Shown piece by piece: positions 1,779 through 23,072 of a stretch of 56,565 nt of DNA. Numbering within the stretch: the stretch's first letter is position 1; the number at the start of each line of letters is the position of its first letter. Both the position numbers and the translations under genes were made by a program. The notes beneath the pieces are model-generated. The model did not search any database. It saw nothing but the letters and a program-made list of their open reading frames with translations, and was not told the origin of the DNA. This DNA is from a virus (lineage: Duplodnaviria; Heunggongvirae; Uroviricota; Caudoviricetes): IMG/VR virus record IMGVR_UViG_3300043788_000176, positions 1 to 56,565 of that record. The stretch is one strand, 5' to 3'.

Positions 1779-2057
1779 ATGACTGAGAAATCGTTCGGCG
1801 ACGATCCGCTGATCTACAGCGAGACCGCGAAACGGCAAATCGCGGAAGACCCGGAGTTGGCAGACGTGATGAAGGATGTCGCGGCGAAGATGCGGCAGGC
1901 GCTCCACGCATGGCAAAGCGGTCAGTACCCAAACTTCGAGACCGCGATGGCGGCGCTCGGTTGCGATATTGCGGAAGTTTCCCCTGGGGACGAGGATTAT
2001 GAGGCAGTCTTCGAAGGGATTGCGATCGAAAATATCCGCAAGGGGAACGCGAAATAA
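1779..2057 (+). CDS. Hypothetical protein
   Basis: AGAGG RBS then ATG 1779; fills the gap between tRNAs. Confidence 0.7.
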   Translation: MTEKSFGDDPLIYSETAKRQIAEDPELADVMKDVAAKMRQALHAWQSGQYPNFETAMAALGCDIAEVSPGDEDYEAVFEGIAIENIRKGNAK

Positions 2058-2065
2058 TTTCAGTC

Positions 2066-2141
2066 GTGCCGCGAGCCAGCTAGGGAAGGCGTCGAGTTGC
2101 AACCTCGATTCGGCAGGGTGCGATCCCCTGGCGGCACTCCA
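2066..2141 (+). tRNA. trnC: tRNA-Cys(GCA)
   Basis: gtgccgc/gcggcac, U73, tcgag-TTGCAAC-ctcga, T-loop TGCGATC. Confidence 0.88.
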
Positions 2142-2142
2142 G

Positions 2143-2254
2143 TTTCGTGCGGGTTATCGGGTGGGCGGGTCGGTTTGGATTTGTGTTGCTCCTGGCCGGG
2201 AAGCAGCGCAGACGCCGGTCTCTGGGAAGTTGAACCGTTCCCAGACGCACGAAA
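2143..2254 (+). ncRNA. Unidentified structured RNA between tRNA-Cys and tRNA-His
   Basis: tttcgtgcg/cgcacgaaa closing stem; tttgtgttgct/agcagcgcaga and tctgggaa/ttcccaga hairpins. Confidence 0.5.
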
Positions 2255-2264
2255 ACATCTCGAT

Positions 2265-2340
2265 GGCGAGGTTAGTGAACCAGTGGAAACGCCGCCCTGT
2301 GGAGGCGGAGCAGCGGGGCCAGCACCCGCACCTCGCCCCA
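2265..2340 (+). tRNA. trnH: tRNA-His(GTG) with encoded G-1:C73
   Basis: G-1 + gcgaggt/acctcgc + C73 + CCA; ccgcc-CTGTGGA-ggcgg; T-loop GCCAGCA. Confidence 0.88.
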
Positions 2341-2345
2341 TCTAG

Positions 2346-2421
2346 GCTGGATTGGCCGAGAGAATAGGCACTCGCCCTGTAAGCGATGACGACGTAGGTT
2401 AAAGTCCTACATCCAGCACCA
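2346..2421 (+). tRNA. trnT: tRNA-Thr(TGT), C33 variant
   Basis: gctggat/atccagc (G1-C72, C2-G71), loop CC-TGT-AA, T-loop TTAAAGT. Confidence 0.75.
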
Positions 2422-2440
2422 ATTTCAGGAGAGGCGAGAG

Positions 2441-2875
2441 ATGCGCACCATAATATTCGACATTGACGGGACTCTCGCCAATGGGGCGCACCGTCAGCAT
2501 CATTTGGCCGCCCTGAAAAAGGACTGGGATGCCTTCTACGCCGCGATGGGCGAGGACACGGCTATCCAGCCGATCATCGACTTGGCCAATCAACTCGCTT
2601 GCGACTACCACATTGTCCTCTGCACTGGGCGTCCCTCCAATTATCGCGAGGTGACCGAGCGCTGGCTCTACGACCACGATGTCCCGCGCTCGGCTCTCTA
2701 CATGCGTGCTGAAGGCGACTTTCGCGACGACACCATTGTGAAACGCGAGATGCTAGCGCAGATGCGGGCGGCTGGATTTGAGCCGTGTCTGGTCGTTGAC
2801 GATCGTACAAAAGTGGTTCGGATGTGGCGTGAGGAAGGATTGGTCTGTCTGCAATGTGCCGAGGGTGATTTCTGA
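2441..2875 (+). CDS. HAD-family phosphatase resembling the 3'-phosphatase domain of T4 PseT (Pnkp)
   Basis: FDIDGTLA motif I, CTGRP motif II, VVDDR motif IV; AGGAGAGG RBS. Confidence 0.88.
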   Translation: MRTIIFDIDGTLANGAHRQHHLAALKKDWDAFYAAMGEDTAIQPIIDLANQLACDYHIVLCTGRPSNYREVTERWLYDHDVPRSALYMRAEGDFRDDTIVKREMLAQMRAAGFEPCLVVDDRTKVVRMWREEGLVCLQCAEGDF

Positions 2876-3075
2876 TGGAAACTTGCGCGTGTCGCATTGA
2901 TTGGGTTTGCTGTTTTCGGCAAGATTGCCCGCGAGCGGCATACATTCGGCGGTTGCAGGAAGCGGCTTACGAGCAAGCGCGTGAGCTTTTAGGTGATCCG
3001 CGCGAGTGCGTTTCGGTGGGACAAGAAGCGGATTGTGATGGCGGATCGTTCAATGGCGAGGATCATGCGCTCTGA
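2875..3075 (+). CDS. Small Cys-rich hypothetical protein
   Basis: TGATG coupling to the upstream gene; stop falls in the tRNA-Gln anticodon loop. Confidence 0.5.
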   Translation: METCACRIDWVCCFRQDCPRAAYIRRLQEAAYEQARELLGDPRECVSVGQEADCDGGSFNGEDHAL

Positions 3076-3113
3076 CCGCATAGATTTGGGTTCGAATCCC
3101 AATCCGCCTGCCA
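3039..3113 (+). tRNA. trnQ: tRNA-Gln(CTG)
   Basis: tggcgga/tccgcct (U1xU72), G73, atgcg-CTCTGAC-cgcat. Confidence 0.9.
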
Positions 3114-3199
3114 ATCGCGGGTCAGAGCTTTGGGCCGTCGGTGACGGGCGGTCGTGGCCTTTGCACTTAGCTCTGGATCGAGCCCACCCTCCCCGCGAT
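3114..3199 (+). ncRNA. Unidentified structured RNA
   Basis: atcgcggg/cccgcgat outer stem, cagagct/agctctg inner stem. Confidence 0.4.
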
Positions 3200-3221
3200 T
3201 TCCAACAGAAAGGGGCGCATC

Positions 3222-3518
3222 ATGGCTGAGAACGAATACTTGACAGGAACGGGCCAGTGGCTCACCGGGGTCCATCCGCGCGAGATCTGCGTCGGCGAGC
3301 ATTGTGTGATCCACAACCCATCAGACCATTGCATGCGTGGGTTCCCGACCCACTGGCGTGCTGACCGCAAGTTGATGGAGCGCATCTGTCCGCACGGCAT
3401 CGGCCATCCCGACCCCGACGACATCGCGTTCAAGCGCGCCACCCGCGGCGACAAGTTTGCCGATACCGAGGTGGTTCACGGTTGCGACGGTTGCTGTTCG
3501 CCTCGGGGATTTGTCTGA
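3222..3518 (+). CDS. Conserved phage His/Cys-rich hypothetical protein
   Basis: CVIHNPSDH...ERICPHGIGHPDPD motif typical of a phage hypothetical family. Confidence 0.8.
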   Translation: MAENEYLTGTGQWLTGVHPREICVGEHCVIHNPSDHCMRGFPTHWRADRKLMERICPHGIGHPDPDDIAFKRATRGDKFADTEVVHGCDGCCSPRGFV

Positions 3519-3591
3519 GGCGGGTGGCCCAGGTGGGTACCGCCGGCTTTGACCCGGCGCGTGTTCGGATCGTGCCCGAAGCCCGCTTCCA
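3519..3591 (+). tRNA. trnQ: tRNA-Gln(TTG), atypical
   Basis: gccgg-CTTTGAC-ccggc, T-loop ATCGTGC, short D arm, TCCA end. Confidence 0.7.
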
Positions 3592-3592
3592 A

Positions 3593-3667
3593 CGCCCATT
3601 CCGCTACCGGCTAGGCGACCCGGTTCTCAGCCGGGCAAAGCGAGTTCGACCCTCGCATGGGCGACCA
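3593..3667 (+). tRNA. trnE: tRNA-Glu(CTC)
   Basis: cgcccat/atgggcg, cccgg-TTCTCAG-ccggg, TTCGAC. Confidence 0.88.
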
Positions 3668-3671
3668 ATAC

Positions 3672-3694
3672 GCGGGCGTGGGGGAACGGTAGAC
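3672..3694 (+). pseudogene. Orphan 5' fragment of a tRNA-Leu
   Basis: gcgggcgtgggggaacggtagac = acceptor strand plus Leu-type D arm; first 8 nt identical to the tRNA at 4205; no 3' half follows. Confidence 0.6.
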
Positions 3695-3737
3695 GGAAGA
3701 TGGTGCGGAAGAGGCGGGGTCATGATACGATCGCCTT

Positions 3738-4214
3738 ATGGATCGTCGCCGCTGGTCAGACGCGGATTTGATTAGAGCCGTAAGCGAGGCAAAATCGATT
3801 GCTTCGGTTTTGCATATCATTGGACTCGTGCCGGCCGGCGGAAACTACAGCTTGATAAAAAGCCACATTCGGCGACTGCGGTTGGATACGAATCACTTTA
3901 CTGGACAAGGATGGAGCCGCGGCTGGGAACTCCCATCAAGAGGAACGCCGCTTGCGGAATTGCTAGTAGCTGGAATTCACCTGAACACCGGCCACATCAA
4001 AAAGCGTTTGATTAAGGACAGACTGATCGAGGAGCGATGCGCCCGCTGTGGCATATCAGATTGGCTTGGACAGAAACTAAGTCTGCATCTTGACCACAAG
4101 AATGGCGCGCGAACAGATTTTCGAATGGAAAATCTGTGGCTGTTGTGTCCGAATTGTCATTCGCAGACCCCAACGTACTGCGGGCGTAACGCATCAAAAA
4201 TTGCGCGGGCGTAG
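3738..4214 (+). CDS. HNH endonuclease
   Basis: CARCG...LHLDHKNG..DFRMENLWLLCPNCH; stop is U8-A9-G10 of tRNA-Leu(TAA). Confidence 0.93.
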   Translation: MDRRRWSDADLIRAVSEAKSIASVLHIIGLVPAGGNYSLIKSHIRRLRLDTNHFTGQGWSRGWELPSRGTPLAELLVAGIHLNTGHIKKRLIKDRLIEERCARCGISDWLGQKLSLHLDHKNGARTDFRMENLWLLCPNCHSQTPTYCGRNASKIARA

Positions 4215-4281
4215 CCGAAGGTCAGGCGGAGAGATTTAAACCCTCTTGTCCTATGGGGTTCGATTCCCCGCGCCCGCACCA
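4205..4281 (+). tRNA. trnL: tRNA-Leu(TAA) without long variable arm
   Basis: gcgggcg/cgcccgc, A73, loop TT-TAA-AC, about 7-nt variable region. Confidence 0.8.
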
Positions 4282-4286
4282 ATTTT

Positions 4287-4371
4287 GTCCGAGTGGCGAA
4301 AATAGTAGACGCGCCTGTCTCATGAACAGGTGCCTCCGGGCGTGGGAGTTCAACTCTCCCCTCGCGCACCA
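4287..4371 (+). tRNA. Class II Leu-type tRNA body carrying a CAT anticodon
   Basis: D arm gtggcgaaaatagtagacgc, long variable arm, A73, loop CT-CAT-GA (G37). Confidence 0.8.
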
Positions 4372-4376
4372 GTTCA

Positions 4377-4466
4377 GGGCGGCTAACCGGACAAGCGCAC
4401 CGGCACCGGTCGGAAACCGGTTGGAGCCTTCATGGGCTTGTGGAGCGTGACCACAGCCGCCCGCCA
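4377..4466 (+). tRNA. trnS: tRNA-Ser(GGA), C33, atypical T-loop
   Basis: gggcggc/gccgccc, G73, long variable arm, loop TC-GGA-AA, T-loop AGCGTGA. Confidence 0.8.
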
Positions 4467-4473
4467 CACTAAC

Positions 4474-4561
4474 GGTTGGGTATCCGAGCCGGCGCTCGGC
4501 CTCGTCTTGAAAGCGAGTGGCACGGAGACGTGTGCGGGTCGGCACCAGCACCCAACCGCCA
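4474..4561 (+). tRNA. trnS: tRNA-Ser(TGA)
   Basis: ggttggg/cccaacc, G73, loop CT-TGA-AA, long variable arm, T-loop GTCGGCA. Confidence 0.82.
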
Positions 4562-4565
4562 ATAC

Positions 4566-4654
4566 GGGCAGTCAACCGCGAGGGCTCGCGGCCCAGCTTC
4601 GAAACCTGGTGGTGCGTGAGAGCGCATGGGACTCGGAATCTCGGCTGCCCGCCA
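4566..4654 (+). tRNA. trnS: tRNA-Ser(CGA)
   Basis: gggcagt/gctgccc, G73, loop TT-CGA-AA, long variable arm, T-loop CTCGGAA. Confidence 0.8.
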
Positions 4655-4658
4655 ATTT

Positions 4659-4747
4659 GGGGCGTGCAAGCAGACAGGCGCACTGCGCTGGATTGCTAAT
4701 CCGGGCGTACCTTCGGGTATCGGCTTCGAATGCCGGCCGCCCCGCCA
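4659..4747 (+). tRNA. trnS: tRNA-Ser(GCT)
   Basis: G73, ctgga-TTGCTAA-tccgg, long variable arm, TTCGAA. Confidence 0.85.
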
Positions 4748-4760
4748 TTCGGAGAAGGTG

Positions 4761-4934
4761 ATGGCTTGGGTCTTAGTCGCCTGCATGGTCGTTTCATTTG
4801 GCAAGCACGATATTTGCGTTACCCCGCAACCCGCCCAGCAATTTGCAACGGTTGCGGCCTGCAAAGCAGCGGCCAATAAGATTGGGCCACCTCATGACTA
4901 TTACGGGCTGTGCAAGCCCGCGGAATTCAAATGA
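4761..4934 (+). CDS. Small hydrophobic, possibly exported Cys-containing protein
   Basis: GGAGAAGG RBS, MAWVLVACMVVSFG N-terminus; stops 1 nt before tRNA-Tyr. Confidence 0.65.
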   Translation: MAWVLVACMVVSFGKHDICVTPQPAQQFATVAACKAAANKIGPPHDYYGLCKPAEFK

Positions 4935-4935
4935 T

Positions 4936-5020
4936 GGGTCGGGAAAGCTGGTGGTTCCAGCAGTCGGTCTGTAAAACCGACCTCGAATGAGGAGAGGATC
5001 GTAACCTCACCGACCCACCA
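4936..5020 (+). tRNA. trnY: tRNA-Tyr(GTA)
   Basis: gggtcgg/ccgaccc, A73, loop CT-GTA-AA, variable arm cctc/gagg, T-loop ATCGTAA. Confidence 0.88.
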
Positions 5021-5022
5021 AT

Positions 5023-5098
5023 GCCCTCGTAGCTCAAAGGTAGAGCATTCGGTTGATAACCGTACCCCCGCCCTGGTCAGTACAGGGCGGGGGTACCA
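5023..5098 (+). tRNA. trnI: tRNA-Ile(GAT) with a competing alternative hairpin
   Basis: Canonical D arm, loop TT-GAT-AA, T-loop GTCAGTA, ACCA; 5062-5096 also forms a perfect 14-bp hairpin. Confidence 0.8.
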
Positions 5099-5113
5099 GA
5101 ACAGGAGACGGCG

Positions 5114-5359
5114 ATGACATGGAACCACCGCGTGATGCGGATGGACTATCCCGACGAGACCCAATTCGAGATTCATGAGGTCCACTACGATACCCCTGAT
5201 GGTCCGCCGCGTTCCTACACCAAGCGCGCGGTCGGCGTCGTCGCTGAAGACCTCGCAGGATTGGAATGGACGCTCAAGGCGATGCTGTCGGCGCTTGAAA
5301 AGCCTGTGCTGACACCAGGCGATTTCCCCGATGGAGGCAAATCGTGCCCTACTTCATGA
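5114..5359 (+). CDS. Conserved phage hypothetical protein
   Basis: AGGAG RBS; WNHRV...IHEVHYD motif. Confidence 0.8.
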   Translation: MTWNHRVMRMDYPDETQFEIHEVHYDTPDGPPRSYTKRAVGVVAEDLAGLEWTLKAMLSALEKPVLTPGDFPDGGKSCPTS

Positions 5360-5409
5360 TCAACATTGAATCTTGGCCAAAAGAGGATTGGTTTGCCAGA
5401 TTGAGTTGA

Positions 5410-5483
5410 GGGGGTATAGCTCAGAGGGAGAGCAGTCGGCCCTTAACCGATCGATCAGGGTTCGAGCCCCTGTGCCCCTACCA
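5410..5483 (+). tRNA. trnK: tRNA-Lys(CTT), C33 variant
   Basis: Canonical D and T arms, loop CC-CTT-AA, ACCA. Confidence 0.85.
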
Positions 5484-5501
5484 ACTGAAAGGATATAGCC
5501 G

Positions 5502-5732
5502 ATGGCTTGGCGGCTTCTGGTTTACAGCGCAGAGACTGACCGACTGACAGCGTCGCTGGACATTCCAGAGTTGTTCTCGCCCGATGTCGAATTCCTTGCT
5601 GAGGTAAAACCGGAGGATGATGGGTTGGGCGAATACCCGCTAGGCGCGCATCAGGCGCGGATCATAGCCGAACGCGCTGGTCTGATTTTGCCAGTTGCCG
5701 AATCGGCCTATTCGGTCGAACTAATTGTCTAG
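5502..5732 (+). CDS. Small acidic hypothetical protein
   Basis: AAGGA RBS; ORF fits between tRNAs. Confidence 0.7.
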   Translation: MAWRLLVYSAETDRLTASLDIPELFSPDVEFLAEVKPEDDGLGEYPLGAHQARIIAERAGLILPVAESAYSVELIV

Positions 5733-5733
5733 T

Positions 5734-5807
5734 GGGCGTGTCTTCCAACGACAGGAAAGTCGGTTGTCTCCCGGCAAATCGGGGTTTGACTCCCCGCACG
5801 CTCGCCA
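5734..5807 (+). tRNA. trnD: tRNA-Asp(GTC)
   Basis: gggcgtg/cacgctc, G73, loop TT-GTC-TC. Confidence 0.85.
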
Positions 5808-5855
5808 GGTTTCCTAGTTGCATTTGTAGGGTAGGCCCACTAAGTTGCTACCCTA

Positions 5856-6389
5856 ATGGGATGGAAGCCAATTGATCTCAATACGGTGCCGATCCGCAGC
5901 CGCGGAGTTTATTTGGATGCCTATGTTCCAGAACATCCTTTTGCGGATCGGCGCGGGCGCGTGCTTCTCCATAGGCTGATTGTTGAAAACAAGGTCGGCC
6001 GTTACCTAACGGCCGCAGAGATAGTTCATCATGATAATGAGAACCCGAGAGATAATGATCCAGATAATCTTTTGATAAAATCCGCACAGGAGCATTCGGC
6101 GCATCATCATCCAAGAGTGAAACGCGTAGAGCTTAAGTGCCTGAATTGTGGATCATCAGTATATAGAAGGCCAAAGCAGATAAAAAACGAGAATGTATTT
6201 TGTGACCGGCGTTGTCGCGGTTTATACAGTCTTGGCCATGCCTTTGGCGGATGCGCGCCGCGCGAGCGCAAGACCCCGCATGGCTCTGCTGGTGACTATC
6301 GTGCTGGCTGTAGATGCGATCTCTGTAAAGCATCTCACGCAAGAAAGATGAGAGAGCGGAGATTGAGACTAAAACGGAGGCTAGGGTAA
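5856..6389 (+). CDS. HNH endonuclease with C-terminal zinc fingers
   Basis: HRLIVE..VGRYL...EIVHHDNENPRDNDPDNL, then CLNC/CDRRC/CRCDLC; lower GC; stop inside tRNA-Pro. Confidence 0.92.
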   Translation: MGWKPIDLNTVPIRSRGVYLDAYVPEHPFADRRGRVLLHRLIVENKVGRYLTAAEIVHHDNENPRDNDPDNLLIKSAQEHSAHHHPRVKRVELKCLNCGSSVYRRPKQIKNENVFCDRRCRGLYSLGHAFGGCAPRERKTPHGSAGDYRAGCRCDLCKASHARKMRERRLRLKRRLG

Positions 6390-6449
6390 CGGTAACCCGC
6401 TCGCTTTGGGGGCGAGAGAATCTCGGTTCGAACCCGAGGCTTCCGACCA
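6375..6449 (+). tRNA. trnP: tRNA-Pro(TGG)
   Basis: cggaggc/gcttccg, A73, loop TT-TGG-GG, TTCGAA. Confidence 0.92.
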
Positions 6450-6511
6450 GCTTTTCCTCTTTACAACCGCCGTTAGTTATCCTAACATGGCTTATCTGAG
6501 AGGGACGCAAT

Positions 6512-7183
6512 ATGACCATGGAAGTAAGTTTGCGACGGGCGTCGCAGATCATCAACGCGATTCAGAGGCGCATTGAGCCGCCACGTGAGGAGCCAGAGGA
6601 AGACTCGTATGGTCGTCGTCGGCGCCGCCACGCCAAGAGCGTAAATCCATTGGCGGCGGTCGTGTCGGTTGATGTTGACACGACGGTTGCGGCGGGGGTG
6701 CTCGCGCGCCGCGACGAGTTGCGCCGCAAAATGGAGGCGACTTGGCGGCTGATGGAAGTGCTGACGGCACTGCGTAATGCGGTCGGTGCCGCCAATCATC
6801 AGTATGGCATCGCGAGTCTTGTGACATCGCGCGCTGGCTTGCTTCGCAAGCAGCAAATCCTCGACGGCATGATCAAGGAACTGGCTGCGGCTGGCACTCT
6901 CGACGAGAACGAGTTGGAGAGGAAACTGGACGCGTTGCGTGATCGGATCGCCGCTATGGCGGCTCGTCCATCATCGCGCTATGGCGAACCGGAAACGCCC
7001 GCCGACAAACTGTCGGTGCCGTTGCTGACGGTTGCCGATCATCGGGAACTACAGCGCGACTTGCTGGCGGCCAATCGCCGCTTGGTCGAGATTGACGACC
7101 AGTTGTCTGCCAAGAATGCGAGCAACAAGATCGCGATCGACGGCGGCGATGTCGAGGTGTTGGAAGCGGAGGGCATCATCTGA
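6512..7183 (+). CDS. Coiled-coil hypothetical protein
   Basis: GAGG RBS, 223 aa heptad-rich ORF. Confidence 0.8.
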   Translation: MTMEVSLRRASQIINAIQRRIEPPREEPEEDSYGRRRRRHAKSVNPLAAVVSVDVDTTVAAGVLARRDELRRKMEATWRLMEVLTALRNAVGAANHQYGIASLVTSRAGLLRKQQILDGMIKELAAAGTLDENELERKLDALRDRIAAMAARPSSRYGEPETPADKLSVPLLTVADHRELQRDLLAANRRLVEIDDQLSAKNASNKIAIDGGDVEVLEAEGII

Positions 7184-7400
7184 GATCGGGGGTTCGCCCC
7201 TGATGGGCGGGCGGGTGAGTGAGTAGAGAAGCGGGCAAAATCTTCAACTCCGGGGTCGCCCACCGATCGTGTCTTTGGTAACCGCGCCGGTTTCCGTTAC
7301 GACGGACGATGACGTGGTAATCCGGGCACACCGGGCGTGCTGGTTGATGGTTGCTGATTGCTGTTTGATCCGTCCGATTCTCTGTTCCTCCCCGCCCGTT
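7184..7400 (+). ncRNA. Candidate structured RNA of about 215 nt
   Basis: gatcgg/ccgatc (7184/7268); purine-rich 7209-7230 complementary to pyrimidine-rich 7378-7397; internal tccgt/acgga hairpin. Confidence 0.35.
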
Positions 7401-7429
7401 TCCCTTGCCGGATAAAGGATGTCGGTAAA

Positions 7430-7687
7430 ATGGAAAGAACACTCACACTATCAGTGATGCCAGTAGGCACGCCTGTGTGGCTGATGACCACGAATTGGCA
7501 GATCCGTGCCACCTTCATCAAGAAAATCACGATCGCGGTGGAAAGTGAGTGGGGCGCTCCCATGATCACCTATGACACCTGTCACGATGATTTTTGGGGT
7601 CAGCATGCCCAGGTAGGTCAGACCATTTTCCTCAGTGAGGATGATGCCCGCGAGGAGGTTGATCGACGGAAGAAGTTGGGCCGCTAG
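7430..7687 (+). CDS. Hypothetical protein
   Basis: Start moved to ATG 7430 after AAGGA; ends TAG TAG inside tRNA-Val. Confidence 0.6.
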   Translation: MERTLTLSVMPVGTPVWLMTTNWQIRATFIKKITIAVESEWGAPMITYDTCHDDFWGQHAQVGQTIFLSEDDAREEVDRRKKLGR

Positions 7688-7753
7688 TAGACCGGCTTAG
7701 AACGGCGCGCCTACACCGCGCAGAACGGGGTTCGACTCCTCGGCGGCCTACCA
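7678..7753 (+). tRNA. trnV: tRNA-Val(TAC), C33 variant
   Basis: gggccgc/gcggcct, A73, gcgcg-CCTACAC-cgcgc, TTCGAC. Confidence 0.85.
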
Positions 7754-7787
7754 ATCGCACACGGCTTGCGTTGGCGGCGGCAATGCT

Positions 7788-8147
7788 ATGACAGAACTTG
7801 AGGCGTGTACCTATGCTGCCGATCTTCTCAAAAGAGTTGGGTTCGAGCATCGGTACACCTCGATGCAGAGCGAGGCGTGTTACTATGGGCTGCCGGGGCG
7901 ACGCGAAGTCGTCAGAATTGCAGGACATCGATACGGTGGTGCCGAATACGGGTTGGCCCCTGTTGTCACATGCCTGACAATCACCGCGAGCAAGGAATGG
8001 TCGGAGGTACAAATCTGTAATCTGACCGCCAGCGCTATCGGCAGTTATTTGCTTCGGTGCGCGGGGATCATGCCCCTTAGCGCTAAAGAGCGCGCCCGTC
8101 GGCAACATCGCGCGCGGCTAACCCAGAAGGAGGTTCCGATGACGTGA
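7788..8147 (+). CDS. Hypothetical protein
   Basis: 119-aa ORF in tandem gene run. Confidence 0.65.
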   Translation: MTELEACTYAADLLKRVGFEHRYTSMQSEACYYGLPGRREVVRIAGHRYGGAEYGLAPVVTCLTITASKEWSEVQICNLTASAIGSYLLRCAGIMPLSAKERARRQHRARLTQKEVPMT

Positions 8148-8169
8148 CGCTCAACATCGGAGGTAAATC

Positions 8170-8868
8170 ATGCGCTACGACATGCACGAGGTCGTCATCG
8201 AGCGACCTCGTACTGGCGGCGTGTATCGCTACCGCAACATCCGTTCGCGGACTAAATTGGAGGATTGGCCAGACAAGCAGGGGATGAGCCGTCCCTACCC
8301 TGAGCACAAGGAGTTTTCCGATCTGCTCGGACCGTTGCGGAGATTTTTAGTCAGACAGGTCGGTCGGACGTGGAACGATGTCTACTCCGAAATCCGGCAG
8401 CGGATCAGCCCGCGCTCGACGGTGCAAATCCACATTCTCGGGCACCTCGATGGCATGGTTTCGACCAAGCTGATCGAGCGCGGTGGCAAACTTTTTGTGT
8501 TCGGTCCGTACTGGGTCCACGAGGTATTTCCTGGCGATCTCTACGTCAATCCGCGCACCGGCATTTTGTGTCGGATGCCGGAACGGCGGCGCTATCCAAG
8601 ACCGACCCCACCGACCGATGTCGTGGTTCTAGCTCCAGAGAGCGAGCTGCGTTTGGTCAATGGGATTTGGTACTGGGCGGTGTTCGCCGGCGTGCCAGCG
8701 CCTTCTGTTGATGCCGAGGGTCGGACGATTCGCAGCATCGCGGTCGATTGCTTTACGGGCAAGGAAAGCCCCTATCCGGGGCGCTATCGGATCGGCAAGC
8801 GGCAAGCCAACCACGCCGATCTCAAACGCCACGGTCTCGAAAACAACGACGCGTTACGCTTCCGGTGA
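8170..8868 (+). CDS. Conserved basic hypothetical protein
   Basis: GGAGG RBS; DMHEVVIERPR..DLLGPLRRFL..QVGRTWNDVYSEI motif; stop in the tRNA-Glu D-loop. Confidence 0.85.
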   Translation: MRYDMHEVVIERPRTGGVYRYRNIRSRTKLEDWPDKQGMSRPYPEHKEFSDLLGPLRRFLVRQVGRTWNDVYSEIRQRISPRSTVQIHILGHLDGMVSTKLIERGGKLFVFGPYWVHEVFPGDLYVNPRTGILCRMPERRRYPRPTPPTDVVVLAPESELRLVNGIWYWAVFAGVPAPSVDAEGRTIRSIAVDCFTGKESPYPGRYRIGKRQANHADLKRHGLENNDALRFR

Positions 8869-8923
8869 GGCGCCCCGTCTTTCAAGCGGGAGAGGCTCGG
8901 TTCGACTCCGGCACGCGTCACCA
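8848..8923 (+). tRNA. trnE: tRNA-Glu(TTC)
   Basis: gacgcgt/acgcgtc, loop CT-TTC-AA, TTCGAC, ACCA. Confidence 0.9.
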
Positions 8924-8943
8924 AACCAAGCAGGAGGACGACG

Positions 8944-9255
8944 ATGCCCATCTCTCGACCACCACCAGTGTCGGATGTGCCCGAGGCTGAAATCACCCAC
9001 TGGCAAATACGACAGTTGGAAAATGGCGATCGGCATCTCGTTGGCGTCGTCCAGAACAGCGGTCACGATGGTCGGGTGTCTTCGAAGATCATGATGATCG
9101 GCGAGCGCATCGTGACCACGCGGAGTGGGCGCAGATATTTTCTGCGTGGGCAACCGGGGACTGCTCCGGTTGCCGAATACGTCTGGCAAATGTGGTGCCG
9201 ATACAACGGGGTTGACCCCGAGACGACGGTTGACGTGACCAAAGATTTTTCTTGA
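8944..9255 (+). CDS. Conserved hypothetical protein
   Basis: AGGAGG RBS; HLVG..GRVSS..TTRSGRRYFLRGQPG motif. Confidence 0.8.
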   Translation: MPISRPPPVSDVPEAEITHWQIRQLENGDRHLVGVVQNSGHDGRVSSKIMMIGERIVTTRSGRRYFLRGQPGTAPVAEYVWQMWCRYNGVDPETTVDVTKDFS

Positions 9256-9281
9256 CACCATAGGTCAGGGCGTCCTATATT
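9252..9281 (+). promoter_or_regulatory. Sigma70-type promoter for the Y RNA-rsr unit
   Basis: TTGACA-N18-TATATT about 10 nt upstream of the first Y RNA. Confidence 0.75.
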
Positions 9282-9291
9282 CCCCTCACAA

Positions 9292-9380
9292 GATCGGCGG
9301 CGTAGGGTAACGGTTACTTCGTTGCTGTGAACGACGATGGGCTTCGGTCCAGTTCCCGTTCCCGCCTGTTCCCCGATCGC
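9292..9380 (+). ncRNA. Y RNA 1 (Ro60-binding, two-hairpin insert)
   Basis: 5' gatcgg-cggcgtagggtaacgg-ttacttcg pairs with 3' ccgttccc-gcctgttcc-ccgatc; directly upstream of rsr. Confidence 0.8.
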
Positions 9381-9396
9381 GTGAAATAGAGGTTTT

Positions 9397-9505
9397 GACC
9401 GGCGGCGTTAGGCAACGGCTACTTCGAGTTCGACTCTCGATATCCCCGCCACCCTATGGGGATAGGGCTTCAGGGCCTTTCCGTTTCCGCTTGTTCCCCG
9501 GTCGC
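9397..9505 (+). ncRNA. Y RNA 2 (T-arm-like hairpin plus two hairpins)
   Basis: Same scaffold with compensatory changes (gaccgg/ccggtc); cgag-TTCGACT-ctcg T-arm mimic. Confidence 0.8.
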
Positions 9506-9514
9506 AGTTCTAGT

Positions 9515-9652
9515 GGACGGCAGACGGCGTAGGGCAGAGGTACTTCGTAGCTCAACTGGTAGAGCATCAGTCTATCAACTGACGGTAGTTGGTTCGAATC
9601 CAACCGACCCCGCAAGGGGTTAGCTCCTCTTCCCGCTTATTCCTCTGCCGCC
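9515..9652 (+). ncRNA. Y RNA 3, YrlA-type tRNA mimic
   Basis: Same scaffold plus D arm tagctcaactggtagagc, anticodon-like stem with 6-nt loop, T arm gttgg-TTCGAAT-ccaac, no CCA. Confidence 0.88.
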
Positions 9653-9693
9653 TATTCCTGCGATCGGTTCCTTTCAACAGAGGAGTAGGTCGT

Positions 9694-11097
9694 ATGGCAC
9701 GATTGAACGTCGCGGCCCGGAAGCCGCAAACTCCACCACAGGCTACCAATCCAATCTATCCGTCGAATGTCCAGCGTACCCATGAGGGTGCGCCTGCGGC
9801 AGAGATTCCGGTCGAACTCCAACTGCGTCGCGCTGTGTGTTCCTGCCTGTTGTGGGAGGACACCCACTACGAGAGCGGCAAGGACATCGGCGACCGCATT
9901 GTCGAACTCGTCGGCAAGGTGCCGGTGGGAGTCGCGACCAACTTGGCGATGGACGCCCGCAGTCATTTCCATTTGCGGCATGCGCCGCTGCTGGTCATGG
10001 CGGCTGTCGCGGCGCCGGGTCGAGGCGGTTCACGGATGATCGGCGAGGCGCTGGCGAACGTGATCCAGCGGCCTGACGAATTGACCGAATTCCTGGCGAT
10101 CTATGCCAAGGTCTACGGCGTGCCGCCAAATGCTGTCCGCAAGCGGCTGTCGGCACAGGTCAAGAAGGGTATCGCAGCGGCGTTCGGCAAGTTCGATCGC
10201 TATCAGCTCGGCAAGTATTTCTCGCCCTCTGGTGAGAAGGGTCAGCCGATCCGCGCCCGCGATGCGATGTTCTTGACGCACCCAAAGCCGCTCGACGAAG
10301 AGCAGGCCGCTCATTGGAAGCAGCTTGTCGCCAAAAAGATCGTCGAGGAGGGTGGGGCTGACACTTGGGAAACCAAGCTGTCGAGCGGCAAGGACAAGAA
10401 GGAGACCTTCGAAGAGCAGTTGCGTGCTGGGAAGCTCGGCTATCTCGCCCTATTGCGCAATCTGCGCAACATGACGCAGGCGGGGGTTGATGAAACCCTG
10501 ATTGCCGACGCAATCGTCGGTCGTCGTGGGGCTCGCCGGGTGTTGCCATTCCGCTATGTCACGGCGGCGCGCGCTTGCCCGCAGATGGCAAAGCCGCTTG
10601 ATCAAGCACTGCAGCAAGCGATTCTTGATCTTCCGGTATTGCCGGGCCGCACCGTGGTGCTGGTCGATGTCTCAGGTTCGATGGACGCGCCAATCTCAGG
10701 CAAGTCCGAACTGAACCGCATTGACGTGGCGGCGACATTGGGAGCGATCGTGCCTGGCGACTGTCAGACATTCTCGTTCTCGCACTCGGTAGTTGCAGTT
10801 GGCCAGCCGCGCGGTCTCTCTGGCATCGAGGCGATCAAGCGCAGCCAGCAGCACGGCGGAACGTATCTCGGTCAGGCTGTCGATTTCGTGAACAGGATTG
10901 ATCATGATCGGCTCATCGTGATCACCGATGAACAGAGTCATGACCACGTGCCGGCACCGAAGGCGAGCAAGGCTTACATCATCAACGTCGCCTCATATCG
11001 AAACGGCGTCGGCTATGGCGATCGGTGGATTCATCTGGATGGATTCTCCGAGCAGACACTCCGCTTCATTGCTGAGTTCGAGAAAATCCTGAATTGA
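9694..11097 (+). CDS. rsr: Ro60/TROVE-domain RNA-binding protein (Rsr)
   Basis: THEGAPA, LRRAVCSCLLWED, IQRPDELTEFLA, LLRNLRN, VLPFRY, VLVDVSGSM and VITDEQ (vWA MIDAS); AGGAG RBS before ATG 9694. Confidence 0.96.
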   Translation: MARLNVAARKPQTPPQATNPIYPSNVQRTHEGAPAAEIPVELQLRRAVCSCLLWEDTHYESGKDIGDRIVELVGKVPVGVATNLAMDARSHFHLRHAPLLVMAAVAAPGRGGSRMIGEALANVIQRPDELTEFLAIYAKVYGVPPNAVRKRLSAQVKKGIAAAFGKFDRYQLGKYFSPSGEKGQPIRARDAMFLTHPKPLDEEQAAHWKQLVAKKIVEEGGADTWETKLSSGKDKKETFEEQLRAGKLGYLALLRNLRNMTQAGVDETLIADAIVGRRGARRVLPFRYVTAARACPQMAKPLDQALQQAILDLPVLPGRTVVLVDVSGSMDAPISGKSELNRIDVAATLGAIVPGDCQTFSFSHSVVAVGQPRGLSGIEAIKRSQQHGGTYLGQAVDFVNRIDHDRLIVITDEQSHDHVPAPKASKAYIINVASYRNGVGYGDRWIHLDGFSEQTLRFIAEFEKILN

Positions 11098-11300
11098 CCC
11101 CTGACGATCTCCGGGAGGCTGGGCTCTATCTCTATGGTTGGGGATGGCAGACCCGGCTTTCCGAGACGCTTGGTGTCGCGGATCGCACCGTGCGGCGATG
11201 GGCGTCGGGTGCCGTCGAGGTTCCCGGTCCAGCGCGGTGCGCGATTCACTGCCTCGTCGAGAGCAAAAAGTTACGCATGGCCACGTCGTCAACTGGATAG
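11094..11300 (+). CDS. Small HTH DNA-binding protein
   Basis: QTRLSETLGVADRTVRRWASG; overlaps the rsr stop; stop in the tRNA-Arg D-loop. Confidence 0.8.
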   Translation: MTPDDLREAGLYLYGWGWQTRLSETLGVADRTVRRWASGAVEVPGPARCAIHCLVESKKLRMATSSTG

Positions 11301-11356
11301 ACACCGAGATTACGAATCTCGCATTAGTGTGGGTTCGAATCCCACCGTGGCCTCCA
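11279..11356 (+). tRNA. trnR: tRNA-Arg(ACG)
   Basis: ggccacg/cgtggcc, cgaga-TTACGAA-tctcg. Confidence 0.9.
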
Positions 11357-11364
11357 TACTCTAC

Positions 11365-11436
11365 GGCCCGCTACCTTGGACGGTGCCTCGGTCTTCTAAT
11401 CCGAGTGAGAGGGTTCGAATCCTTCGCGGGTCACCA
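11365..11436 (+). tRNA. trnR: tRNA-Arg(TCT)
   Basis: ggcccgc/gcgggtc, loop CT-TCT-AA. Confidence 0.88.
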
Positions 11437-11438
11437 CT

Positions 11439-11510
11439 GCGCTCGCCAGCGGATCTGGCGTCTGGCCTCCGAAGCCGGAATGCGGGGTCCGACTCCCCGC
11501 GGGCGCGCCA
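11439..11510 (+). tRNA. trnR: tRNA-Arg(CCG)
   Basis: gcgctcg/cgggcgc, loop CT-CCG-AA. Confidence 0.85.
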
Positions 11511-11512
11511 GA

Positions 11513-11590
11513 GCGCGACTAGCCCAATTTGGCAGAGGCGGCTGTTTCAAGAACAGCAGGTTCGGGGTTCGAATCCCCGGTCGCGTACCA
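11513..11590 (+). tRNA. trnL: tRNA-Leu(CAA) with short variable arm
   Basis: gcgcgac/gtcgcgt, A73, gctgt-TTCAAGA-acagc, 5-nt variable region. Confidence 0.85.
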
Positions 11591-11594
11591 TCAT

Positions 11595-11671
11595 GGGATC
11601 GTGACGCAATTGGATAGCGTAGCGGATTTTTAATCCGAAGGTTGTGAGTTCGAGCCTCACCGGTCCCACCA
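11595..11671 (+). tRNA. trnK: tRNA-Lys(TTT)
   Basis: gggatcg/cggtccc, loop TT-TTT-AA. Confidence 0.92.
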
Positions 11672-11672
11672 A

Positions 11673-11746
11673 GCCCACATAGCTCAGTGGTAGAGCAATG
11701 GATTCGTAACCCATAGACGCCTGTTCGATCCAGGCTGTGGGCACCA
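11673..11746 (+). tRNA. trnT: tRNA-Thr(CGT)
   Basis: gcccaca/tgtgggc, loop TT-CGT-AA. Confidence 0.92.
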
Positions 11747-11758
11747 CTAACTTTTCTC

Positions 11759-11787
11759 TTGACGCCATCGGGATCGCTGCTTATCTT
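11759..11787 (+). promoter_or_regulatory. Sigma70-type promoter for the suppressor tRNA-pth2 unit
   Basis: TTGACG-N17-TATCTT, 15 nt before the CUA tRNA. Confidence 0.75.
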
Positions 11788-11802
11788 GCGCTCTAGGAAC
11801 AA

Positions 11803-11876
11803 GCCTCGTTAGCTCAGCAGCCGAGCAGCCGGCTCTAACCCGGTGGAGGTGGGGGCGGCACCCACACGAGGCACCA
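11803..11876 (+). tRNA. Amber suppressor tRNA (CTA anticodon)
   Basis: gcctcgt/acgaggc, A73, CCA; D stem gctc/gagc; gccgg-CTCTAAC-ccggt; T arm gtggg-GGCGGCA-cccac. Confidence 0.88.
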
Positions 11877-11890
11877 GACAGGATGTCGAG

Positions 11891-12268
11891 ATGTCGTAGG
11901 TAGACCAAACTCTCCGCATTTACGCGATCCTGCGCGGAGACCTTGACATGCTTCCCGGTAAGGCTGCGAGCCAATCCGGGCACGCTTTCCTCGACTCGTT
12001 TCTCCAAGCCCATCCCGATATTCAACGCGCCTATCTCGCTGACGGTCACGGCACCAAGGTCGTACTCGTAGCTGAGGATGCGGCGGCATTGTTCGGCGCG
12101 CAGGCTGCGGCCCGTGCGGCGGGTTTGCCATGCGCGTTGGTCGAGGATAGCGGGCATATCATGCCGCCGCATTTTGACGGCTCTCTGATCACCACTGCGC
12201 TCGGCATCGGGCCAGCTACACGCGATCAAGTACGTCGCATCACCGAAAGGTTCGGCTGCATGCGATGA
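11891..12268 (+). CDS. pth2: Peptidyl-tRNA hydrolase type 2 (Pth2) with in-frame TAG at codon 3
   Basis: LRIYAILRGDLDMLPGKAASQSGHA, KVVLV and TALGIGP match Pth2. AGGA-N7-ATG(11891) TCG TAG is in frame; the track start at 11948 truncates the conserved N-terminal strand. Confidence 0.85.
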
Positions 12269-12272
12269 TCCT

Positions 12273-12350
12273 GGGGCGGTAGCTTACAGAAAGCGCCAAT
12301 GGCTCGAAAGAGCCTGCGGAGACGGCAGTTCGTCACTGTCCCGCCCACCA
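12273..12350 (+). ncRNA. tRNA-like RNA 1 lacking an anticodon loop
   Basis: gggcgg/ccgccc+ACCA, D arm gctt/aagc, T arm ggcag-TTCGTCA-ctgtc; anticodon arm ends in ggctc-GAAA-gagcc. Confidence 0.75.
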
Positions 12351-12358
12351 AATCCGAT

Positions 12359-12441
12359 GCGTCGGTAGCTCAGCGGTAGAGCGCTCGCGGCACCTCGGTG
12401 CTAAAGAGAGAGGGATGGTTCAACTCCTCCCCGACGCGCCA
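12359..12441 (+). ncRNA. tRNA-like RNA 2 lacking an anticodon loop
   Basis: gcgtcgg/ccgacgc+GCCA, canonical D arm, TTCAACT T-loop; anticodon arm has an internal loop capped by gcac-CTCG-gtgc. Confidence 0.75.
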
Positions 12442-12464
12442 CTCTCACACAGGGAACCTTAGTC

Positions 12465-13079
12465 ATGTCTCGCGCAGCGCTCAGAGAGCGAAGTAGTAGA
12501 TCGCTGCACTGGAGAACGCTCGCACTCAACGCAGACGGGCGACCGCTGTCTACATACCCACTTTCGATTGTAAGCGCACAAGATGCGGTATCGGCGATCT
12601 GGCGCCAGCGGGCCATCGTGATCGAAACGTGGGAAGGCGCGTTCTTCCGCTCGCCATCCACGACGATTGCGGTTCCCAAAGTCATGATGCTCAGGGAATA
12701 CGCCCCTATCTCCGGGGAACCGAAATTTTGTCGGCGCTCGATCCTGTTGCGGGACAAGTTCCGGTGTCAGTATTGTGGGCAGGAGTTTCCATCGCAGGAG
12801 TTAACCTACGATCATGTCATTCCGCGGTCGCTTGGCGGGAAGACGGTCTGGACGAACATTGTCACCGCCTGCCTACGGTGCAACGCCGCAAAGGCGAATA
12901 GCCTCCCGCATTACAGTGGCCGGAAGGGGGTCGTCCAAGCTGGCAAGATGCGTCCGCTGAAGGAGCCGCGTCGGCCGACGACCGCCGAATTGCTGCGCGC
13001 GGGGCTCCAGTTTTTGCCCAATGATTTGAAAGAGTCCTTCGGGGATTTCATCTATTGGGGCGTGGAATTGCACGCATGA
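12465..13079 (+). CDS. HNH endonuclease (McrA-like, proteobacterial family)
   Basis: TLALNADGRPLSTYPLS..LRDKFRCQYCG..LTYDHVIPRSLGGKTVWTNIVTACLRCN. Confidence 0.93.
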   Translation: MSRAALRERSSRSLHWRTLALNADGRPLSTYPLSIVSAQDAVSAIWRQRAIVIETWEGAFFRSPSTTIAVPKVMMLREYAPISGEPKFCRRSILLRDKFRCQYCGQEFPSQELTYDHVIPRSLGGKTVWTNIVTACLRCNAAKANSLPHYSGRKGVVQAGKMRPLKEPRRPTTAELLRAGLQFLPNDLKESFGDFIYWGVELHA

Positions 13080-21092: not shown

Positions 21093-23072
21093 ATGACCCT
21101 TGTCCCGATCAAGTTGCGCCCTGGCGTGACAACTCAGCCGACTCCTCTGCTAAATGAATCTGGCTGGTCCCAAAGTCAAAACATCCGCTGGAAAGATAGC
21201 TTGCCAGAAAAATACGGCGGCTATTTCCAGTTCGCGCAAGTGCCGTCTGACGCGGGCGTGCCCCTAGCATTACAGGCGTGGACCTCTCTGGCGAACCTAG
21301 ACTTTCTCGGCATCGCCTGCTTCCATGGTCTTGAGGTTTTCCTGTCGGAGCAGGTCTACGATATCACGCCGAACACCATCTTCTCGCTGGTGCCGCTGTC
21401 AATCTCGACCACCACCGGCAGTGCCGTCGTTGTGATCGCAGACTCGGTCAACGCGCCGATTGTCGGTGAGTGGTTTCAGATTCACGATCCAATTTCTGTT
21501 GGCGGGATCATCCTGCAAGGAAGTTACGGGGTCACCGCGATCGGCGCGGGCACCTATTCGATTATGTCGGCGGTTGAGGCGACATCTTCAGTGGTGGCTG
21601 GTGGCCAATCCCGCATTCTGACTACGGTTGCGGGGTCCAAGACAGTCACCGTCAATTTACCCAACCACGGCTTGTTCAATGGGCAAATCGCGAGCTTTCC
21701 GGACCCCACGCCGATCGGCGGTCTGACGCTGCAAGGCAATTATTTGACCGTCTACGTTAACTCTAGCACTTACGAGGTGACAGCCGCGACTGCGGCAACG
21801 TCGAGTGTAACCGAGCCTGAGCAGCAGGCTGCATTCGGCGCTGGCGAGGCAATGCAGATTACCTTCTTCAATCCCGCGACTGGTGGGACGCAAGTTGATA
21901 TGCACGCCTCGCAGGCGACGATGGCGAACTGGGGCGAGTTTCTGATGTGGTGCCCGCAGTTCGGTCCGGTGTTTGTCTGGATGCCGGCATCTGGGACATC
22001 AGTCCCAGCCCAGGACATCACGACCGCACCGCAGAGCAACGGCACCATTTTTGTCGCGACACAAGAGGAGCAACTTTTCTGCCTCGGCAGCGTCAATGCG
22101 GCGACTGGTCTGTTTGACCCAATGCTGATCAATTGGTCTGATGTTGCTGATTATACTGATTTTATTCCAACCGTTACCAATCAAGCGGGCGACTTTCGCT
22201 TGGTGACTGGCTCGCGAATTGTGGGTGGCTTGGCGTTGGCAGGCGGCAATATCATCTGGACCGACCTGTGTGCGTATTGGGCGCAGTATCTTGGGTCGCC
22301 TCTGGTTTGGGGGTTTCAGCCTATTGGGCTCAATTTTGGTTTGGTCGGGCCGCATGCTTTTGGCACATTGGGAGCCAATGTATTCTGGATGACCCAGCGT
22401 CAATTCGTGTTCGTGTCGCCGGGCGCGTCGCCGCAGGTCATGGCGTGTGCGGTCTGGGACTTGGTGTTCAAGAACATGGATCTGGCGAACCTCTCCAATG
22501 TCGTGTGCGAGACCAATTCCTTCTACAATGAGGTATCGTGGGAAGTGCCGCAGGCAGATGGCACCGTGACTCGTGCGACCATACAGATTGATACGGGGTT
22601 GTGGAGCTACACGGTTCTGCGTAATAACAGTGACGACGTGCCACGTAGGGCGTGGATTGACCAGTCGGTGTTTGGGGCGCCACTGGCAGCTGATGCAACC
22701 GGCATTATCTGGCAGCATGAAACGGGGAAGAATGCTGGGACACAGCCACTGGCGTGGTATCTGAAGACGGGTATTATCATGGTCGCCGAGGGCGACCAGA
22801 TTACGTTTTTTAGAGAAGTCAAGCCAGACTTCAAGTTTAGCGAAACCGGCCCTGGCCCTGGTGTTGTCCAATGCAAGATTTATGTCTATCAGGACCCGCT
22901 CGATTCCCCTACTGTGAAAGGACCTTTTTATATAACAGACAAGACAAGATCAATTCCTGGAGCTAGAGGAAGAGGAAGGGGTATCCAATTCGAATTTAGT
23001 GGCAATGACCTTTCGAGTTGGGTAAGAGGAGGAATGATCAGGTACAGAGGTAGTTCGGATGGACGAAGATAA
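21093..23072 (+). CDS. Tail nozzle / DNA-stabilisation protein (P22 gp10-like)
   Basis: MTLVPIKLRPGV..ESGW...RW..PEKYGG start; INWSDVADYTDF.P..TNQAGDFRL..GSRIVG; RARGRGRG-type C-terminus. Confidence 0.85.
   Translation: MTLVPIKLRPGVTTQPTPLLNESGWSQSQNIRWKDSLPEKYGGYFQFAQVPSDAGVPLALQAWTSLANLDFLGIACFHGLEVFLSEQVYDITPNTIFSLVPLSISTTTGSAVVVIADSVNAPIVGEWFQIHDPISVGGIILQGSYGVTAIGAGTYSIMSAVEATSSVVAGGQSRILTTVAGSKTVTVNLPNHGLFNGQIASFPDPTPIGGLTLQGNYLTVYVNSSTYEVTAATAATSSVTEPEQQAAFGAGEAMQITFFNPATGGTQVDMHASQATMANWGEFLMWCPQFGPVFVWMPASGTSVPAQDITTAPQSNGTIFVATQEEQLFCLGSVNAATGLFDPMLINWSDVADYTDFIPTVTNQAGDFRLVTGSRIVGGLALAGGNIIWTDLCAYWAQYLGSPLVWGFQPIGLNFGLVGPHAFGTLGANVFWMTQRQFVFVSPGASPQVMACAVWDLVFKNMDLANLSNVVCETNSFYNEVSWEVPQADGTVTRATIQIDTGLWSYTVLRNNSDDVPRRAWIDQSVFGAPLAADATGIIWQHETGKNAGTQPLAWYLKTGIIMVAEGDQITFFREVKPDFKFSETGPGPGVVQCKIYVYQDPLDSPTVKGPFYITDKTRSIPGARGRGRGIQFEFSGNDLSSWVRGGMIRYRGSSDGRR

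Follow-up and report, generated by a model that had tools for sequence, protein, structure and literature searches.

A CUA tRNA and an early amber codon ahead of a Pth2-like gene

The window analysed here is the first 56.5 kb (56,565 nucleotides) of a single 120,565-bp virus record (IMG/VR IMGVR_UViG_3300043788_000176; Caudoviricetes), with a GC content of 59%. A tRNA array occupies its first 12.5 kb, with 23 tRNAs detected in the window by ARAGORN, and at the end of this array sits a small amber cassette, in which a tRNA gene with the anticodon CUA is followed by a reading frame for a protein resembling the peptidyl-tRNA hydrolase Pth2 that carries an in-frame TAG as its third codon (the gate). 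A nucleotide search of GenBank phages returned short tRNA matches only, and the virus, a soil phage, thus has no close cultured relative.

All parts of the cassette lie on the forward strand. It opens with a predicted sigma-70-like promoter (11759-11787), whose hexamers TTGACG (11759-11764) and TATCTT (11782-11787) match the consensus at 9 of 12 positions and are separated by a 17-base spacer, inside the expected 16-18 nt; this is the sole such site in 11400-12700, where shuffled sequences give an expectation of 0.2. The tRNA gene follows at 11803-11876 (74 nt, discriminator A, encoded CCA), and ARAGORN places the CUA anticodon in a 7-nt loop, CUCUAAC, with U33 and a purine at position 37. Next come a Shine-Dalgarno-like AGGA (11880-11883) and, 7 nt beyond it and 14 nt past the 3' end of the tRNA, ATG 11891 of the Pth2 message, which opens a two-codon leader ATG TCG followed by the gate TAG (11897-11899; leader and gate together 11891-11899) with G as the next base. 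Beyond the gate the frame continues as GTA GAC CAA ACT CTC CGC ATT TAC and runs for 122 codons to a TGA stop at 12266-12268 (11900-12268), so that the full read-through frame, 11891-12268, encodes a product of 125 residues. Between the TAG and ATG 11948 there is no ATG, GTG or TTG, and predicted mRNA structure at the gate is not remarkable (minimum free energy z-score -1.66). An initial annotation, made from the letters of the sequence alone, had described the promoter, a full CUA tRNA, an AGGA-N7-ATG TCG TAG in frame with Pth2 and a conserved strand ahead of the next possible start; each of these is borne out, with the qualification that the elbow of the tRNA is non-canonical and is missed by the Rfam tRNA model.

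The gate TAG is real and not a read error, a point that the same annotation had marked for checking, because it is carried by an independent assembly and by contigs from soil sequencing runs. The independent JGI metagenome contig L048, 98% identical here, reads ATG TTG TAG, so that the second codon has changed and the TAG has been kept; both of its promoter hexamers are identical to those of the window, with three or four base differences in the spacer between them. Soil-run contigs on this stretch came from four runs in four studies (the TAG being confirmed in runs X1, X3 and X4), and are short, of low depth, leave parts of the stretch uncovered and give neither RNA ends nor expression levels. 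A DNA-run contig starts exactly at 11897 and shows no differences, and two RNA-library contigs (11815-12026 and 11802-11952) span the TAG with no difference there and bridge the tRNA and pth2. As RNA libraries may contain DNA, we take this bridging as a weak hint that the two are co-transcribed.

The protein encoded beyond the gate has the Pth2 fold and belongs to the PTH2 family. It matched PF01981 (PTH2) with an E-value of 1.2e-16 and 61.4 bits against a cut-off of 23, over profile positions 3-112 of 115, and this match already begins before ATG 11948, at residue 10 of the read-through product. A profile built from 18 homologues and compared with the PDB aligned end to end with archaeal and human Pth2, with 2zv3 matched from chain residue 2 (E 1.7e-21). 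An AlphaFold model (pLDDT 94.5, pTM 0.88) was searched with Foldseek and superposed on 3erj, 2zv3, 1q7s and 1xty with TM scores of 0.84-0.90 and an rmsd of about 2 Å. The GK...Q..HA and D.GH motifs are common to the phage protein and canonical Pth2; K21, Q25 and H28 show no variation, and D/E-x-x-H86 is conserved. Work on S. solfataricus reportedly assigned the active-site residues of Pth2 to the Lys of the GK motif and the Asp of D.G. Unlike the canonical enzymes, the phage proteins have Ile or Val in place of the Thr that follows G-H, and form a subfamily marked by the invariant motif H.(M/L)PPHF(D/T)G and by four inserted residues; the window protein is a predicted hydrolase. A search of genome contigs with the single protein gave one distant match, to an archaeal metagenome-assembled genome.

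DSSP analysis of the model assigned the first strand, beta-1, to residues 5-12 after the TAG (LRIYAILR; 11912-11935), which corresponds in the alignment to the N-terminal strand of Pth2 proteins of solved structure. Because the first canonical start, ATG 11948, comes only after this strand, a product initiated at that codon would be short of a core strand of the fold. It could be argued that a short protein of 106 amino acids from ATG 11948 is nonetheless the real one, with the upstream in-frame similarity a relic, since this is the first canonical start and the gene calls for 54 of the 120 best homologues in the database begin at the equivalent Met, giving 104-110 amino acids. We consider this most improbable. 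The ATG (11948-11950) is the start used by gene callers and not the functional start: it has no Shine-Dalgarno sequence before it and encodes the Met of the DL.M..GK motif, an internal residue that is invariant in the family alignment, and the 8-residue beta-1 after the gate is conserved, open and in frame in all of the related loci described below. The frequency of calls from the internal Met indicates instead that the gate is routinely missed by gene callers, and that many phage Pth2 database entries are mis-started at this residue.

Gate codons and tRNAs in related loci

The initial annotation had predicted that relatives would carry an early TAG next to CUA tRNAs, and this pairing was found to recur in many unrelated phages. 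Using the window protein as query, all of the first five relatives retrieved from IMG/VR (about 50% identity, 35-63% GC) had a Shine-Dalgarno sequence and ATG, one to five codons and an in-frame TAG before the conserved strand. A larger viral set of 40 loci, two GenBank phages and two further contigs was reduced to 36 non-redundant loci at 90% identity, with Pth2 proteins at about 45-63% identity. The first in-frame stop upstream of the domain was TAG in 33 of these, TGA in 3 and TAA in 0, and with a null TAG share of 0.22 the binomial p for 33/36 is about 1e-18. In 32/36 the layout is that of the window, with a Shine-Dalgarno sequence, an ATG leader of 1-9 codons (two being commonest) and the stop, and many of the loci have a tRNA-CUA nearby. 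A purine directly follows the gate TAG in 29/33. In E. coli suppression studies, a purine after the stop favours suppressor tRNAs.

A metagenome set contributed 80 further loci, with 79 covered by the count of gate stops, and TAG was the first in-frame upstream stop in 49/79. An ATG leader followed by TAG was present in 37, with a tRNA-CUA within the locus in 23 of the 37; its start usually lies 91-133 nt before the TAG, as in the window, and in about 20 loci the tRNA-CUA is directly upstream in the same way. One of these relatives, L052, has an identical ATG TCG TAG G directly past its tRNA-CUA. Across the family the stop is conserved in position, with coding conservation beyond it. No gate precedes the Pth2 of phage phiM12 (30% identity), which is more canonical and has an ordinary start, and a small subclade with a long N-terminal extension also looks ungated. 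The terminator of TAG-gated pth2 genes was itself TAG in 5/69, compared with 26/187 neighbouring open reading frames (ORFs), a weak trend on which we do not rely. In three loci (L041 3906-3980, L100 373-450 and L126 2906-2980) a tRNA-CUA gene, itself in frame and stop-free, sits within the open frame, after the gate TAG and before the Pth2 domain, and because of this position release of the tRNA would sever the mRNA; copies of the motif ACGTAGGTT flank this tRNA on both sides in L041.

The gate and the tRNA change together, and this co-variation is the strongest evidence for function. In L026 and L030 the leader is M-x-HLDHR-TGA, and the sole tRNA in each 8-kb locus has the anticodon UCA. Likewise, in the cultured Agrobacterium phage Atu_ph07 the leader ATG ATT GGC GAA CAC TTT TGA stands before the homologue (46% identity), and a UCA suppressor is the single non-canonical tRNA reported for that genome (PMC6102473). 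The Sinorhizobium phage Phosso has the leader ATG AAG TAT TAG. Four further loci have a leader ATG displaced by one frame from the coding sequence. Next to each stands a tRNA whose 8-nt anticodon loop contains the exact four-base complement of the site that would restore the frame: L049 (4680-5000) pairs a UAGC site with the loop UUGCUAAC, L015 (3773-4046) a UAGA site with CCUCUAAU, and L053 (4783-5000) and L110 have UGAA sites with the loops CCUUCAAC and CCUUCAAA. Ochre leaders, ATG TTG TAA, occur in three loci (L077, L087 and L096), and no tRNA-UUA was seen in their 3-kb flanks.

Gates shifted by +1 were seen in six loci altogether (L049, L053, L110, L015, L013 and L055), at UAGC, UGAA, UAGA or UAGG, with a matching 8-nt loop in four. 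In addition, the leader is of the type 'M..SH' and ends in CAT TGA C in many metagenome loci, possibly representing a CAUU four-base codon, on a CAUU/AAUG reading checked on one locus (L104).

This distribution bears on a different explanation, in which ATG-TCG-TAG is a tiny upstream ORF, translation terminates and then restarts at a non-canonical codon downstream, and the tRNA-CUA is coincidental or serves other genes. In its favour, a near-cognate start follows the TAG in 14 of the 33 TAG-gated relatives (ATT 10, ATC 1, CTG 2, GTG 1), and gene callers used such a GTG in L052. However, 18/33 have GTT, GAA, GTA, GAC or similar codons in this position, and in the window GTA GAC CAA ACT CTC CGC offers no near-cognate start before ATT 11918, which lies inside beta-1 and has no Shine-Dalgarno sequence. 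Restarting would also leave unexplained the TGA leaders with tRNA-UCA and the off-frame leaders with four-base-matching tRNA loops, and we judge it very unlikely.

Amber read-through as a proposed translational lock

The presence of a phage-encoded tRNA-CUA is a hallmark of TAG-recoded phages (bioRxiv 10.1101/2021.08.26.457843), and pth2 could in principle be just one recoded gene in a genome where TAG is generally a sense codon (code 15). The genome is standard-code and not recoded, however, as the initial annotation had argued from genes that end at TAG. Coding density was 0.90 in code 11 and 0.92, 0.91 and 0.91 with TAG, TGA or TAA as sense, respectively, so that reading TAG as sense gains no more than reading TGA or TAA. 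A codon-score test found no gene halves joined by TAG; its candidates for genes split by TAG, TGA or TAA were only antisense shadows or adjacent genes, and global recoding was rejected. TAG terminates 32 of 144 crude ORFs, and ends real genes such as the HNH gene at 23059-23799 (PHROG E 8e-39), where the ATG of the next gene follows directly. This junction (23797-23802) places the TAG and the ATG of a 210-amino acid gene in the same frame, such that read-through would fuse the two, which is probably incidental. When an ATG and a clear Shine-Dalgarno sequence were required, no arrangement of short leader, TAG and ORF other than pth2 was found in the 120-kb genome, and pth2 is the only evident target of the tRNA-CUA. 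The relatives' loci are likewise not recoded, and we regard code 15 as having a negligible chance of accounting for the gate.

The tRNA itself calls for more caution. Its D-loop (AGCAGCC, without GG) and T-loop (GGCGGCA) are non-canonical, so that the usual elbow, G18 G19 with T-Psi-C-R-A, is absent. It nevertheless fits the family of 43 gate tRNA-CUA genes, which share one cloverleaf with compensatory double changes in 18/20 pairs, and it keeps all four stems; in L048 an A-to-G change in the acceptor stem converts A-U to G.U and the pair is kept. Since a tRNA-CUA from a different phage (L063, 64-138) has a similar pair of loops, both tRNAs carrying CAGC for GG in the D-loop and GGCGG.. for TTCGA.. 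in the T-loop, the odd elbow may be an alternative, co-varying variant and not decay, as this resemblance hints. The nearest other tRNA in the genome is no more than 64% identical and CUA tRNAs of other phages are closer (74%). Similarity at this level supports no assignment of an amino-acid identity to the tRNA, so that the inserted residue is not predictable.

These features could also be taken to mean that the cassette is decaying, the TAG being a nonsense mutation, the odd tRNA-CUA a pseudogene, and no product made. Consistent with this are the non-canonical D- and T-loops and the missing Rfam match, and a second tRNA-like gene at 12359-12441 that resembles a relative's tRNA-CUA and has lost the anticodon loop. 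We consider decay highly improbable, given that the same early stop stands in the same place in dozens of lineages at 45-63% protein identity and 31-66% GC, with the rest of the ORF intact, that the four stems of the window tRNA are kept in a family showing compensatory changes, and that L048 has kept the TAG as the adjoining codon changed.

Putative decoding of UAG by the gate tRNA in vivo is supported indirectly, by gate-anticodon co-variation across loci, and several observations weigh against read-through. The odd elbow is the main weakness for this window, in that the tRNA could be weak or inactive, and Rfam RF00005 gave no match to it even at E <= 10 when 691 bases were searched. About a third of gated loci have no suppressor tRNA in their 3-4 kb flanks, and the TAG-gated L113 has only a tRNA-UCA in its flank. 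The ATT, ATC, CTG or GTG codons after TAG in the 14 relatives leave some room for re-initiation there, although not in the window, where the codon is GTA. Finally, TAG is the terminator of about one crude ORF in five, so that a strong suppressor would be costly.

Taking these points together, we think it likely that the cassette is a two-part translational lock, in which read-through of UAG by the tRNA-CUA gates synthesis of the Pth2-like protein. Gating by the phage's own suppressor had been suggested in the initial annotation, and gains strong support from the conserved TAG (33/36 viral loci) and from the co-variation of gate and tRNA; none of the outcomes listed there as refuting it was encountered. 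One transcript, probably from the promoter at 11759-11787, would carry both the UAG-reading tRNA and the Pth2-like mRNA; ribosomes would start at ATG 11891 behind its Shine-Dalgarno sequence, read TCG and meet UAG at codon 3. With the phage tRNA absent, release factor 1 would end translation after a dipeptide and no enzyme would appear, whereas once tRNA-CUA has been made, processed and charged a residue could be inserted at UAG and the full 125-residue protein completed. Synthesis of the enzyme thus very probably requires read-through of the stop by the phage tRNA. With the gate at the very start, failed read-through would waste almost nothing and leave no truncated domain.

As to purpose, the initial annotation had suggested that the gate would report a matured and charged phage tRNA and would supply hydrolase at times of increased peptidyl-tRNA drop-off. 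We favour a checkpoint or feedback on tRNA status, in which the output of hydrolase would depend on whether a private phage tRNA is functional or charged, over a sensor of release factor, because relatives gate the same gene with UGA, UAA and four-base sites. If these gate types are interchangeable, the conserved trait would be dependence on a private tRNA and not competition with one release factor. On the evidence of the locus comparisons, the window is a typical member (amber, with the tRNA directly upstream) of a widespread phage recoding cassette that is apparently unpublished. A more general idea, which we put forward tentatively and hold to be rather doubtful, is that of a private decoding channel: a dedicated tRNA for a codon unread by host tRNAs (UAG, UGA, UAA or four-base, the last amounting to natural quadruplet decoding) would have the one conserved job of unlocking a Pth2-like tRNA-ester hydrolase, whose synthesis would be fed back on the state of charged or peptidyl tRNA. 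Such a channel would also explain what the orphan suppressor tRNAs found in standard-code jumbo phages do.

The nearest known kind of system is phage stop-codon recoding with suppressor tRNAs. In crAss-like, Lak and other gut phages TAG is reassigned to Gln ('code 15') or TGA to Trp ('code 4') and the phages encode their own suppressor tRNAs (Borges et al., bioRxiv 10.1101/2021.08.26.457843; Peters et al., PMC9523058); post-transcriptional regulation by suppressor tRNA has been proposed for them, in a paper that mentions no hydrolase (bioRxiv 10.1101/2021.08.26.457843). The proposed lock shares with these phages a suppressor tRNA that reads an in-frame stop, so that a gene is translated only if the tRNA is active. 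Recoded phages, however, have many late genes with many in-frame stops and a drop in standard-code density, whereas here a standard-code genome has one small gene with one stop at codon 3. Furthermore, the tRNA is linked in cis to the gene, and from phage to phage the gate of this one gene family varies between TAG, TGA, TAA and four-base sites.

Two standard-code jumbo phages with orphan suppressor tRNAs also carry a tRNA-CUA or tRNA-UCA and a Pth gene, XacN1 (PMC5852040) and Atu_ph07 (PMC6102473). The authors of the XacN1 study, on a Xanthomonas phage, could not identify target genes for its suppressor tRNA (PMC5852040), and in Atu_ph07 the annotated form of the homologue is a hypothetical protein that begins at the internal Met, and the TGA leader matching the reported UCA suppressor goes unnoted. 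A survey of jumbo phages mentions PTH2 and nothing on suppressors (PMC7824862). The genome papers name the components but draw no connection between them, and literature searches turned up no study that relates phage PTH2 to suppressor tRNAs or to quadruplet decoding, in agreement with the initial annotation, which had known of no description of the arrangement.

Two bacterial and phage precedents share single elements with the cassette. The gene for release factor 2, prfB, is autoregulated through an early in-frame UGA and a +1 frameshift, and thus also has a conserved early in-frame stop in a translation-factor gene that ties synthesis to the state of the decoding machinery; a +1 shift is likewise used by relatives of the cassette. 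In prfB, however, no special tRNA is involved and the product acts on its own stop codon, whereas here a dedicated tRNA would be the key and feedback of Pth2 on the gate is hypothetical. The bar minigenes of phage lambda are two-codon ORFs (AUG AUA UAA) that are toxic in pth-defective E. coli via peptidyl-tRNA drop-off, and share with the cassette a phage mini-ORF of Shine-Dalgarno sequence, AUG, one codon and stop that is tied to the biology of peptidyl-tRNA hydrolase. These minigenes are free-standing and toxic to hosts with little Pth, whereas the mini-ORF of the cassette is in frame with and fused to the hydrolase gene. Lastly, laboratory frameshift-suppressor and UAGN-decoding tRNAs (sufD, sufA6 and sufJ; evolved UAGN tRNAs, PMC4764823) resemble the relatives L049, L015, L053 and L110, with their 8-nt loops paired with UAGC, UAGA or UGAA, although the laboratory tRNAs are mutants or engineered, and the window itself has the plain three-base amber form.

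Suppressor tRNAs of standard-code phages have so far been without a known target, and the cassette supplies one that is specific, conserved and testable, with cultured carriers (Atu_ph07 and Phosso) available for bench work. If the lock works as we infer, it would be a compact natural tRNA-and-codon switch, bearing on how phages monitor or manipulate host translation and on orthogonal-codon tools.

Neighbouring genes and tRNA-like elements

Many tRNAs of the array (1-12500) are divergent. The ARAGORN calls at 2066, 3519, 3593, 5734 and 11803 have no Rfam match at E <= 1, and three tRNA-like genes detected with Rfam (5023-5095, 9545-9607 and 12359-12438) were missed by ARAGORN. One further ARAGORN call, '(tc)' at 8847-8922, was considered as a decoder with an odd loop and rejected, as it is better read as a tRNA-Glu(UUC) with a normal 7-nt loop.

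Upstream of the cassette lies a TROVE/Ro60 plus vWA gene at 9589-11097 (PF05731 E 1e-9; phrog_850 'RNA-binding protein' E 7e-47), which is preceded by three repeated Y-RNA-like modules, the third with a tRNA-like domain (Rfam tRNA 43 bits on a partial model, 9545-9607). Gene and modules together (9290-11097) look like a phage Ro60/Y-RNA module, judging by these matches, and the same arrangement is kept in L048.

Directly 3' of pth2 there are two tRNA-like genes (12275-12352 and 12359-12441), which have acceptor, D and T arms and CCA, with tetraloop hairpins in place of the anticodon loop. The second scores 41.9 bits with the Rfam tRNA model and is 71% identical to the tRNA-CUA of L007, a resemblance that suggests it may be a remodelled copy of a gate tRNA. 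A YrlA-like reading of 12299-12407 was rejected at 17.5 bits (E 0.86), far under threshold, and is probably an effect of the two adjacent tRNA-like genes. Beyond them the cassette is flanked by an HNH endonuclease gene at 12465-13079 (PF14279 E 5e-18), and in L052 an HNH gene lies on the opposite side of the tRNA-CUA/pth2 pair.

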